From the NCBI GenBank assembly GCA_030390025.1, contig CM059453.1:7440001-7504000 (forward strand): a stretch of 64,000 bases of DNA. Direction: 5' to 3'. The notes beneath the pieces were generated by a model. That model was not told where the DNA came from and did not search any database. It worked only from the letters and a program-made list of their open reading frames with translations. This DNA comes from Squalus acanthias. Its lineage: Eukaryota. The number at the start of each line of letters is the position of its first letter. The stretch's first letter is position 1. Position numbers and translations under genes: made by a program. Below, in pieces: positions 14,951-37,767 of this stretch.

Positions 14951-15208
14951 ATTGTACATAAATCTGTGAGAAGCTGTTTGCGGTGCCCAGGTTATTTTCA
15001 GCCACGCACCAATACTCCCCGTCATCTCCAGAACTAATGCTGTGAAATATCTGCTTCAGTTCACCGGTGGAAGACCTGCTGATCTCTGTTCCATCTCGGA
15101 GCAACGTTAATCTGACCGGGGGGTACCCCATGGCCGTTCAGTATAATAATAATGAACTTCCTTCCACTGTTACTTTAGAGGAATTGACGCTTGGTTTCGA
15201 CAGTGCAT
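14951..15208 (-). pseudogene. Gene A third Ig exon with TGA at the B-strand Cys
   Basis: VEGSSLLLY*TAMGYPP..DDGEYWCVAENNLG. 258 nt. Confidence 0.85.
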
Positions 15209-16013
15209 CTGAAACACGCAAGATCATTGGTGTTATCGGAAAATGTCGGAACAGGTTTTCAAAAAACAATCCGGTTGACAACCAACGAAGAATATTGAAG
15301 CAGATTTGGTGGTTATATTGTCAACTGTAAATTGAAAAGCCAGCTTGAGATTGTTCATGTTCCCCCGACAAGCTTATTTAGATCTGAACCATGCTTTAAC
15401 TCAAACATTCCTCCTCTTCCCTTCAAAGATTTGTATTGACTGCCTGGACGTGGTTCTGCCCCACCGATAAGTCAATCAAGCGGCCATTCCTCCGAAAGCA
15501 AGACCAGTGGACTGTCACATCCCTTCAACAGACCTGTTGAGGCCAATTGTAGTAACCGGACCACCACCCCAGCCAACTCGACAAAAACCCTCTGTGTCAA
15601 CTACTCTCTGGCTGCAACTATATCAGGAATTAGGAACCTTTGGATAATATTTGACGTAAACGAAAACCACGGAGCCAATATGTACCCCATGGGTCTGTGT
15701 CAATGTTAAATAATACAACTTACAATAAATCTCATACAGTCAATTTGATTAATTGATTGTAGAAATATAGGCCATTCAGCACTTCCAGGCTGTTGCACTA
15801 ATCAATTACTCATGGTTAATCCATATCGTAACTCCTTCTACCCGCGTTTCCTTTATTGTAACCCTTAATACGGTTACCTAAAAAAAAATCTATACATCGC
15901 AGTTTTGAAATTTTCAATTTTCCAGGCCAGCTATCACTCCATTGAGAATAAAGACAAGTTTGGATCCTATTTACCAACAGGATGGTAGAATGAAGGGTAC
16001 AGCAGTTACTTAC

Positions 16014-36000: not shown

Positions 36001-37767
36001 GCAGTTACATCCTCAAAAAATTCCAGGAGATTAGTCAAGCATGATTTACCTTTTGTAAATCCATGTTGACTTTGTCCGATCCTGTCACTGTTTTTCAAGT
36101 GCTCAGCTTTTACATCTTTTATAATGGACTCCAGCATTTTCCCCACTACCGATGTCAGGCTTACCAGTCTGTAATTCCCCGTTTTCTCTCTACCACCCTT
36201 TTTCAATAGTGGGGTAACATTAGCTACCCTCCAATCCATGGGTACTGTTCCAGATTCCATCGAATGTTGGAAGATGATCAGCAATGCATCTACTATTTCT
36301 GGGGCCACTTCCTTAAGTACCCTAGGATTTAGATTATCAGGCCCTGGGGATTTATCGGCCTTCAATCCCTTCAATTTCCCTAACACCATTTCCCTACAAA
36401 TACTGATTTCTTTCAGTTCCTCACTTTCATCAGACCATATGTTCCCCAACATCTCTGGTGAGTTTATTTGTGTCCTCCTTTGTGAAGACAGAACAAAAAT
36501 ATGTATTTAATTGGCCTGACATTTCTTTGTTCCCCATTATAAGTTTCCCCTGATTCTGACTGCAAGGGACCTATGCTTGATTTCACTAATCTTTTTCTCT
36601 TCACATATCTATACAAGCTTTTACAGTCAGTTTTTATTTTCCCTGTAGCTTACTCTCGTATTCTATTTTCCCCTTCTCAATTAATCTCTTTGTCCTCCTT
36701 TGTTGAATCTTAAACTGCTCCCAATCCACAGGGTTACTGCTTTTTCTGGCCAATTTATATGCCCTCTCCTTGGATCTTATGCTATCCCTAATTTCCCTTG
36801 TTAGCCATGGTTGAGTCACCCTTTTTGTTTTATTCTTATGCCAAACTGGGATGAACAAATTCAGTAGTTCGTCCATGCGGTCTTTGAATGTTTGCCATTG
36901 CCTATCCACCGTCAACCTTTTGAGAGGCAGTCCCCAATCAATCCTACCCAACTCGCACCTCATACCATCGTAGTTTACTTTATTTAAATTCAGGACCCTA
37001 GTCTCTGAGTCAACTACTTCATTCTCCATCCTAATGACGAATTCTATCATATTATGATCGCTCCGACCCAAGGGGCCTCGCACAACAAGATTGCTAATTA
37101 ATCCTTTCTCATTGCATAATACCCAGTCTACGATGGGCTAATCTCTGGTTGGTTCCTCGACATATTGGTCCAGGAACCCATCCCGTAAACACTCCAGGAA
37201 TACTTTCTCCATAGTATTGTTACTAATTTGGTTAGCCCAATCTATATGTAGATTAAAGTCAACCAAGATGACTGCTGTGCCCTTATTGCACGCTTCTCTA
37301 ATTTCCCTTTTAATGCCATCCCCAACCTCCGCATTACTGTTTGGAGATCTATATATCACTCCCACTAACGTTTTCTGCCCCTTGTTGTTTCTCAGTTCAA
37401 CCCATACAGATTCCACATCATCAGAGCTAATATCATTCCATCAAGACTTAACAACGCTCATCTCATGGATCAGCACCATTAGAAAACTTACCAGGGAAAA
37501 AATAGTTCGATTTCTTCTGGTGCAGACAGCACACTCCCATCGCATTCTACTCCATATCTGCAATAGCTCCATATCTAACACAAATACCTTCCATTACAGA
37601 GGGACGATCAGTGTACAGAGGCTGGTCGTGGCGCCGCACAATCGACTAAACCAGCTCAGAATGACGAGATTGCGTACGCGACCGTCAATGTCTCCAACTT
37701 CCGCAAACATGATCAATATATTCAAAATGAGGAGACCAGCGAATATGCAGCAATTAAACAGAACTGA
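23979..37767 (+). CDS. Siglec/MAG/CD22-like ITIM receptor gene B, unit 1 (8 exons; Ig3 exon disrupted, so an exon-skipped product or a pseudogene)
   Basis: Exons 23979-24021, 24659-25039, 27221-27532, 28118-28375, 29296-29583, 30406-30493, 33123-33210, 37600-37767. All introns are GT-AG with compatible phases. Confidence 0.85.
24659..25039 (+). CDS. Gene B Siglec-type V-set exon
   Basis: [44 protein letters not shown]. 381 nt, donor G|GTGAGT. Confidence 0.9.
25205..26080 (-). mobile_element. Old CR1-like LINE 3' remnant
   Basis: CR1-type 3' UTR pattern tagaaattacagcagtaaaacaggccgtttggccc followed by highly decayed RT-like sequence. Confidence 0.5.
27221..27532 (+). CDS. Gene B second Ig (C2-type) exon
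   Basis: [48 protein letters not shown]. 312 nt. Confidence 0.9.
27922..28047 (-). mobile_element. Short CR1 3'-end fragment
   Basis: taagaacttaagaattaggaacaggagtaggccatacggcccttcgagcctgctccgcc matches the ends of the other CR1 copies in the window. Confidence 0.75.
28118..28375 (+). pseudogene. Gene B third Ig exon, disrupted
   Basis: TAA at 28219-28221 and 28360-28362, and F-strand Cys to Arg (EYWR). 258 nt, paralogous to the gene A Ig3 exon. Confidence 0.87.
29296..29583 (+). CDS. Gene B membrane-proximal MAG/Siglec-type Ig exon (not in ORF track)
   Basis: [48 protein letters not shown] shows the C-x-C pattern of MAG domain 5. 288 nt, open. Confidence 0.9.
30406..30493 (+). CDS. Gene B transmembrane exon
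   Basis: [29 protein letters not shown](R). Acceptor ttacag, donor AG|GTAGGT. Confidence 0.8.
31840..33014 (+). mobile_element. CR1 LINE 3' fragment in gene B intron
   Basis: [49 protein letters not shown]. Tail ttcttatttcttatgttctt. Confidence 0.93.
33123..33210 (+). CDS. Gene B cytoplasmic exon 1 with ITIM VIYSTV
   Basis: Phase-2 acceptor ttattattcag, [29 protein letters not shown], donor GTAAGT. Confidence 0.82.
33640..33915 (+). mobile_element. Degenerate Deu-domain SINE
   Basis: gaaggttgtggcttcaagc..ctgggctgaaac..ctttcgattagatgttaaacg resembles 13530-14145. Confidence 0.5.
33985..34565 (-). mobile_element. Old CR1 3' remnant
   Basis: aatcacagaatcatgcagcccagaatgaggccattcagccc tail, and gcacagaattggacgaaatac (YCVQFW-like on the minus strand). 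Confidence 0.6.
34738..37439 (-). mobile_element. CR1 LINE, 5'-truncated ORF2 (APE end plus RT) with frameshifts
   Basis: [92 protein letters not shown]. Confidence 0.95.
37600..37767 (+). CDS. Gene B terminal exon with ITIM IAYATV and ITIM/ITSM-like SEYAAI
   Basis: [36 protein letters not shown]. Phase-0 acceptor ccattacag. Confidence 0.85.
   Translation, partial: RDDQCTEAGRGAAQSTKPAQNDEIAYATVNVSNFRKHDQYIQNEETSEYAAIKQN

Follow-up and report, generated by a model that had tools for sequence, protein, structure and literature searches.

Paired Siglecs are among the closest described receptors with the layout considered here. They combine highly similar ectodomains with opposite signals (PMC6288428, PMC5701461). 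Siglecs are named among the jawed-vertebrate families in PMC8455134. Fish are stated to have no inhibitory CD33-related Siglecs in the available part of PMC7226832, which leaves sharks unmentioned, and a term search of PMC13358205 returned no mention of shark. Here we describe a 64,000-nucleotide stretch of the Squalus acanthias genome (assembly GCA_030390025.1, contig CM059453.1, positions 7,440,001 to 7,504,000 of the forward strand; hereafter the window, in which position 1 is the first letter) that contains two divergently oriented Siglec-like genes. We designated these genes A (minus strand) and B (plus strand). Our favored reading, held with real reservations, is that the window contains two 97%-identical copies of a piece of an elasmobranch Siglec-like cluster, with gene A present as a pseudogene and gene B likely encoding a receptor of three Ig domains that is predicted to be inhibitory and noncanonical.

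Gene B is made up of eight exon-like pieces, of which the fourth, a 258-nt immunoglobulin (Ig) exon, is dead. Because this exon has phase 1-1, it can be skipped in frame, and we infer that the gene B mRNA skips it. The remaining seven exons form an open frame of 455 amino acids comprised of a signal peptide, a V domain, a C2 domain, an Ig domain with a C-x-C pattern, a transmembrane segment, and a 90-residue tail. Their 1365 coding nucleotides are free of stops and all 12 splice ends are canonical GT-AG. The skipped exon has two stops in 255 nt, versus none in the 1365 nt of the other exons (P=0.025 if lesions fell evenly), a distribution which suggests that the other exons stayed under selection. 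The spliced form aligns end to end with models from the sawshark Pristiophorus (P0007, 58% identity over 445 residues) and the horn shark Heterodontus (P0008, 54% over 456), both of which also lack the domain encoded by the 258-nt exon. That domain is present in 9 of the 22 family models checked. A Heptranchias isoform that was considered as an example of skipping this exon was rejected; the isoform differs in its tail. A fragment of a high-copy repeat (27924-28048) lies 70 nt before the acceptor of the dead exon and could have weakened its splicing.

The gene B tail, which follows a type I transmembrane segment, contains two immunoreceptor tyrosine-based inhibitory motifs (ITIMs), VIYSTV and IAYATV, and a distal ITIM-like motif, SEYAAI, all intact. 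The ITIM signature applied was [IVLS]xYxx[LV] (PMC7226832). The predicted protein thus combines the transmembrane segment, ITIM, and distal ITIM-like motif by which inhibitory Siglecs are recognized.

The predicted head of the receptor lacks the residue that defines Siglecs. Aligned with YNFRFE of sialoadhesin, gene B reads YELSFE and gene A YYFILK, with Ser and Ile, respectively, in place of the essential F-strand Arg, a point that the initial annotation of this locus missed. Arg occupies this column in 16 of 17 outgroup rows and in 8 of the 14 other family rows, but in none of the 16 rows of the clade to which gene B belongs, which have Ile (11 rows), Ser (4 rows), or Leu (1 row). These 16 rows represent 14 database proteins from nine genera, including the ray Narcine, plus the two copies of gene B in the window. 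Judged from its sequence, gene B is Siglec-like, with the tail of an inhibitory Siglec and a head that departs from the family definition, and it is predicted to lack canonical sialic acid binding. Because none of the sampled members of the clade has the Arg, the ligand of its receptors is likely not sialic acid. Narcine has a long branch, yet it falls within the gene B clade in both of the trees described below. If it is rightly placed, the loss of the Arg would therefore predate the shark-ray split. This split took place roughly 250 to 300 million years ago.

Other features of the V domains are those expected of Siglecs. Both V-set exons carry the GSC..C and CSL cysteine pattern that had been noted initially. 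The B- and E-strand Cys are present, in columns that align with platypus Siglec-1 and turtle MAG, and the F-strand Cys is lacking (Leu in gene B and Phe in gene A). An additional V-C2 Cys pair is predicted between Cys36 (of the GSC motif) and Cys168 in gene B, and likewise in gene A and the relatives. Both V exons match the Pfam V-set and Ig_CD22 families, and sialoadhesin is their best solved relative. An AlphaFold model of the gene B V domain (pLDDT, a measure of model confidence, 82) had sialoadhesin as its first structural match (Z 16.2, root mean square deviation 2.1, 112 residues aligned), with CRIg and MAG within 1 Z. The full-length relatives are nearest to MAG among proteins in the PDB (sequence E 4.7e-52), and the closest fold to the model of the sawshark relative is MAG Ig1-3 (E 2e-21). 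A search of the ESM Atlas gave CD22-like/CD33-like V-set clusters only. The C-x-C exon alone had no good match among solved structures (best E 0.0056). The proposed Siglec/MAG kinship is therefore borne out by Pfam, solved structures, fold, and the alignment of the relatives to MAG.

The origin in a cartilaginous fish that had been proposed from the letters alone also held, as the closest named proteins are all from sharks and rays. They are automatic models from Heterodontus, Heptranchias, Pristiophorus, two species of Scyliorhinus, Mustelus, Carcharodon, Cetorhinus, Chiloscyllium, Stegostoma, Mobula, and Narcine. Therefore, the genes in the window are considered to be elasmobranch genes. The relatives hold several paralogues per contig; for example, seven Heptranchias clusters are located on one 15.7-Mb contig. 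Among 26 tails surveyed, most of the long ones had ITIM-like motifs, and a few models had a short tail or a charged residue in the transmembrane window, so that activating members might exist elsewhere in the family. Several of the models P0023, P0037, P0165, P0168, and P0171 have two or three copies of the C-x-C domain, and C2 or the third Ig domain is missing from others. Domain number in the shark family, as predicted from these models, varies through exon gain and loss.

Phylogenetic trees were constructed for the V domain (47 rows) and the C2 domain (33 rows, with five outgroup rows dropped for low score). In the V tree, a branch with support of 99/97 separates 30 rows, which include the four window copies and whose named members are all from sharks or rays, from the other rows, among which are those of turtle MAG, Siglec-1, and the chondrichthyan CD22-like and CD33-like proteins. 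Gene B falls in the 16-row clade (97/94). Gene A lies outside it, with Heptranchias P0175 as its nearest relative. The gene B clade was recovered in the C2 tree (12 rows, 100/100). Approximately unbiased tests, which covered 29 of the 47 rows with quick trees and were run after the first tree was seen, rejected the grouping of gene B with MAG (p 0.0026), gene B with CD22-like rows (0.012), genes A and B together with MAG (7e-5), and genes A and B as sisters (0.030). The trees thus place genes A and B in old, separate sub-lineages. Orthology to MAG, represented by the turtle row only, is further contradicted by the 24-26% identity and the multiple copies, and orthology to CD22 by the separate grouping of the Pristis and Carcharodon CD22-like rows. 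The family is not nested within the CD33-related rows, as judged from the 99/97 branch in a tree with an unresolved base and one named mammalian row. Grouping as the single-copy MAG or CD22 orthologue, which the initial annotation had listed as the outcome that would speak against an expanded receptor array, was not seen. The array can be called lineage-specific, as proposed, for elasmobranchs as a group but not for S. acanthias alone.

The gene A copies in the two units of the tandem repeat described below are both pseudogenes. Because the first exon of gene A has 43 nt, like that of gene B, the next exon would need to contribute a multiple of three. It has 382 nt, and the spliced frame ends after 43 codons in both units. 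Use of a second acceptor (19546) does not rescue the frame but leads to an immediate stop. The sizes of 43 and 258 nt that had been given as matching between the two genes, with GT-AG ends, are correct, but the pairing of 382 with 381 nt reflects this frameshift, and the third exons are unequal (297 nt in gene A versus 312 nt in gene B). Both 258-nt exons carry stops, a TGA at the B-strand Cys in gene A and two stops along with a lost Cys in gene B. A remnant of the gene A tail, which starts about 310 nt beyond the 258-nt exon and outside the coordinates first annotated, retains the ITIM VLYAAV and has two stops, one of them at the last Tyr. Searches with 28 family proteins (tblastn) found no C-x-C, transmembrane, or first cytoplasmic exon on the gene A strand. 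The C-x-C domain noted initially, with its adjacent transmembrane segment, is therefore a feature of gene B only. Because the frameshift, the three stops, and the three missing exons are shared by both units, gene A appears to have been an ITIM-type gene that acquired these lesions before the duplication.

Self-BLAST of the window revealed a single long repeat. Positions 1-2869, 3615-9741, and 11973-27477 recur downstream with 95-97% identity at offsets of 38730, 38643-38733, and 36494, respectively. The longest block is 15.5 kb, far above chance. These offsets agree with the 36.5-38.7 kb unit recognized initially. The two units differ by 647 substitutions in 24440 aligned columns (2.65%) and by 43 indel events. 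The 2.2-kb difference between the periods of 38.7 and 36.5 kb is due to one insertion in unit 1 (2231 nt). It was read as a young, apparently 5'-truncated Penelope-like element from matches to reverse transcriptase (RT; E 1.3e-5) and GIY-YIG (E 4.3e-4), both below the Pfam cut-off. The window spans about 1.65 repeat periods and thus gives neither the unit ends nor the unit number. The tandem duplication is likely real and recent. Within 37 kb, one gene has become a pseudogene, an exon of the other has died, a third, B-type gene has been reduced to a relic by deletion, and this duplication has occurred, in accord with the birth-and-death evolution that had been suggested. The relic consists of a promoter region and the start of exon 1 (82% like 23099-23989, with a promoter copy of 890 nt), joined by a deletion to a piece like intron 2 of gene B (85% like 25057-25135).

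One alternative explanation for the repeat is that two divergent haplotypes of one locus were set in tandem during assembly. Only two copies are visible, and no public run contained more than 58% of the sampled words. In a read check limited to 4 of 12 listed runs and to window positions 13500-33400, there were several sites at which all contigs differed from the window. Depth in this check provides no copy number. However, paralogy is favored by the 2.65% divergence over 24 kb, which is high for alleles, together with the indels and a unit-specific insertion with its own target duplication. Furthermore, there is no N in positions 27478-38730, the stretch joining both copies, and single nonrepeat positions are covered by as many as 12-18 (X1) and 21 (X5) distinct contigs, numbers that hint at many paralogues without being a count. 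An assembly artefact is accordingly regarded as improbable. The initial annotation viewed genes A and B as amplified in the form of a paired module. On such a view they would be a working activating/inhibitory pair selected as a unit, like SIGLEC11/SIGLEC16. The start codons that it placed at 19969 (minus) and 23979 (plus) are indeed head-to-head and 4010 nt apart, and the gene B transmembrane segment is charged. However, these charges belong to the gene with the ITIMs, and its closest relatives do not have them. Both tails are of the ITIM type, with gene A broken in both units. The ectodomains share only 58 of 113 residues in V (51%) and 34 of 80 in C2 (42%), the exons have 68-75% nucleotide identity with no sign of conversion between A and B, and a sister relation was rejected. 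Because the two genes stem from old sub-lineages and gene A was dead before the duplication, they were copied as neighbors rather than as a selected activating/inhibitory pair, and the existence of such a pair is regarded as very unlikely.

A further possibility is that gene B is also nonfunctional or on its way out and that the unit is a graveyard at the edge of a cluster with its working members elsewhere. Gene B departs at 12 of 84 columns that are invariant in eight relatives (one of these is a splice-junction residue), with changes that include an extra Cys in place of Gly in V and Met in place of Trp in C2. Its transmembrane segment has Glu and Arg where P0007 and P0008 have Gly. Between units the C2 exon has 12 amino-acid changes versus 1 silent change (Fisher p 0.14; 15 versus 1 for V and C2 together, p 0.094). 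The changes fall on both copies, and several in copy 1 hit conserved sites (D to V, T to K, and L to M), as relaxed constraint would give. Positive selection on this exon was considered and rejected as not significant; 11% of 257-nt windows are equally diverged. Against such decay, the intact frame, splice ends, and tyrosine motifs of gene B differ from the state of its dead exon, and relatives depart at 1-11 columns by the same measure, with the intact-looking P0030 at 11 of 83. Thus, gene B may be decaying, but a graveyard is considered unlikely. It was also considered whether gene A might yield a short secreted decoy, in which splicing would bypass the broken V exon and join exon 1 directly to the C2 exon, ahead of a stop. 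Both of these exons are phase 1 and open, and a white shark model (P0168) is without its V exon. The gene A exons differ at 10 of 1150 nt between units where about 30 would be expected (random segments P=0.003, in a test chosen after the data were seen). The separate proportions of silent (pS 0.0195) and nonsilent (pN 0.0073) differences are not significant. However, the low divergence is not limited to the C2 exon. Part of it is a tract around the V exon that takes in introns (0.6-0.8%), as gene conversion would give, and the V-skipped product is the less likely reading, one to which we attach very little probability. Several of the findings above weigh against a live gene B in a real duplication, namely its departures from the invariant columns, the unusual likeness of the gene A exons, and the poor match of the public runs. 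In addition, the trees rest on 100-120 columns with long branches (Narcine, Mobula, and MAG) and no shark MAG or Siglec-15 row, and the C2 tree draws an unnamed long-branch row, P0058, into the family. Loss of the Arg also leaves room for noncanonical glycan binding (PMC10122656).

Table 1. Coordinates of features in the window
Feature	Position	Strand	Remark
Gene B exon 1, signal peptide, 43 nt	23979..24021	+	
Gene B V-set exon, 381 nt, Siglec-type cysteines	24659..25039	+	Sequence, Pfam, fold model
Gene B second Ig (C2) exon, 312 nt, open	27221..27532	+	
Gene B dead 258-nt Ig exon, two stops, Cys lost, phase 1-1	28118..28375	+	
Gene B membrane-proximal C-x-C Ig exon, 288 nt, MAG domain 5-like	29296..29583	+	Alignment of a relative to MAG
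Gene B transmembrane exon	30406..30493	+	Glu and Arg; Gly in close relatives
Gene B first cytoplasmic exon, VIYSTV	33123..33210	+	
Gene B last exon, IAYATV and SEYAAI, stop	37600..37767	+	
Gene B copy 2 (60499-60541, 61181-61561, 63744-window end)	60499..64000	+	Open as far as visible
Gene A exon 1, signal peptide, 43 nt	19927..19969	-	Matches Heptranchias P0175 N-terminus
Gene A V-set exon, 382 nt, frameshift near 5' end	19175..19556	-	Pfam V-set 6.8e-9
Gene A second Ig (C2) exon, 297 nt, open	16014..16310	-	Pfam C2-set_2 2.4e-6
Gene A third Ig exon, 258 nt, B-strand Cys to TGA	14951..15208	-	Both units
Gene A last cytoplasmic exon remnant	14471..14638	-	tblastn E 5e-14 and 5.8e-10
Gene A copy 2 (56490-56448, 56077-55696, 52826-52530, 51721-51464, 51150-50983)	50983..56490	-	Frameshift and stops as in copy 1
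Relic of third, B-type gene	21909..22878	+	Unit 2 copy 58429-59400
Unit 1 of tandem repeat	1..38730		Self-BLAST offsets; true ends outside view
Unit 2 of tandem repeat	38731..64000		Window end cuts into third exon of gene B
Putative Penelope-like element, RT and GIY-YIG, 621-codon open frame	9742..11972	+	Unit 1 only; 7-nt target duplication

Additional features of the window were observed. The spacer between genes A and B has, by eye, CCAAT boxes and a TGACGT site at 21500-21580 that are a possible promoter element. A 27-nt match to the last codons and stop of gene B occurs at 7711-7743 (plus strand) and 46443-46469, after a 75-nt tandem repeat. It may represent the end of a fourth paralogue that has been lost, for which no further exon was found nearby. 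Older Penelope-type fragments are present at 4308-5090 and 12508-13033, with unit 2 counterparts. Decayed pieces of reverse transcriptase of the long interspersed nuclear element type lie in the introns of genes A and B (17500-19000, 31900-33000, and 34750-37440), as judged from translated frames and high contig depth. A tRNA-Asp-like remnant was seen by eye next to a run of N at the homologous place of both units; ARAGORN and Rfam gave no match in the window.

The CpG observed/expected ratio is 0.69 across the window and 0.93 at 38000-41500, and the ratio of transitions to transversions between units is 0.6. Both the 0.69 and the 0.6 are unusual for methylated vertebrate DNA, and together the values may flag a region that is hypomethylated in the germline. 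The ratio of 0.6 was also considered as a sign of sequencing error but was rejected as unspecific; the 82% promoter repeat gives 0.69. No indel was found at the gene A frameshift among 12 of the 204 indel rows listed in the read check. Two contigs at a depth of about 3 on the gene B V (24657-24807, 10 of 151 positions different) and C2 (27268-27431, 16 of 164) exons were attributed to a paralogue, not gene B, and the run that gave them is only guessed to be RNA.

If gene B is a working inhibitory receptor, as we favor, its 455-amino-acid protein would reach the leukocyte surface, where binding of a ligand, possibly a protein or a glycan other than sialic acid, would result in phosphorylation of the two ITIMs and SEYAAI. 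The phosphorylated tail might then recruit SHP-1/SHP-2, by analogy with inhibitory Siglecs (PMC7226832, PMC6288428). Genes A and B would have been copied together by unequal crossing-over in a multicopy cluster. The duplicated cassette is, on this account, ordinary cluster turnover, in which a dead gene and a probably live gene were copied together.

A broader interpretation, offered tentatively and rated slightly on the doubtful side, is that a separate radiation of inhibitory MAG-shaped receptors took place in elasmobranchs, in parallel with that of the CD33-related cluster in mammals. One branch would have dropped sialic acid binding before sharks and rays split and would have persisted from then on in the form of ITIM receptors that recognize a protein or pathogen ligand, gene B being a live member that is still duplicating. 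An ITIM-bearing expansion in elasmobranchs would mean that inhibitory Siglecs in clusters had either a second origin or an earlier one, at the base of the jawed vertebrates. The Arg-keeping side of the family and the Arg-less clade are a natural pair with which to probe recognition by the Siglec fold without sialic acid, a question familiar from human Siglec-XII. A literature search found no description of a shark Siglec family, which existing reviews may cover, and the family, above all its old Arg-less inhibitory clade, seems undescribed beyond automatic RefSeq/UniRef names. Supplementary file 9 of the whale shark paper reportedly deals with Siglec gene families and may bear on the origin of this one.

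Those automatic names cover the nearest relatives of the window's genes. Shark and ray models named 'sialic acid-binding Ig-like lectin 5/8/12/13/14' or 'MAG-like' (for example, Heterodontus XP_067883557.1, Pristiophorus UPI00398EA648, Heptranchias XP_067831324.1, and Narcine XP_069758101.1) belong to the same family. Their domain order, cysteines, and tyrosine motifs are as in gene B, with which they form one clade and share 54-58% identity over its length. The names imply a mammalian orthology that the trees do not show, and gene B differs from the models in its charged transmembrane segment and the extra Cys of its V domain. MAG/Siglec-4 (PDB 5lf5 and 5lfr; turtle P0178) shares the layout of V, C2, C2, and a membrane-proximal C-x-C domain. 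However, its identity to gene B is only 24-26%, it keeps the Arg, and the shark family is multicopy with three tyrosine motifs. The V domain of sialoadhesin/Siglec-1 (PDB 1qfo and 1od7) is the best single-domain match (sequence E 3e-14, and the fold match given above), but its Arg97 is replaced in both genes, and Siglec-1 is built from many more Ig domains and clusters separately.

SIGLEC11 and SIGLEC16 are head-to-head about 9 kb apart (PMC5701461), a layout like that of genes A and B at 4.0 kb, and one partner in paired Siglecs such as SIGLEC11/16 and SIGLEC5/14 is often a pseudogene (PMC5701461, PMC6288428), as is gene A. Unlike those pairs, genes A and B do not have near-identical ectodomains, a sign of conversion, or an activating partner. 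CD33-related Siglecs, including the Arg-less Siglec-XII and great-ape Siglec-5/14, are likewise clustered, evolve by birth and death, and have a tail with an ITIM and an ITIM-like motif, and their Arg-less members have null alleles (PMC6288428). They are on a separate branch from the shark family in both trees. Furthermore, the loss of the Arg in primates is recent and lineage-bound (PMC6288428), whereas in sharks and rays it marks a whole clade over nine genera.

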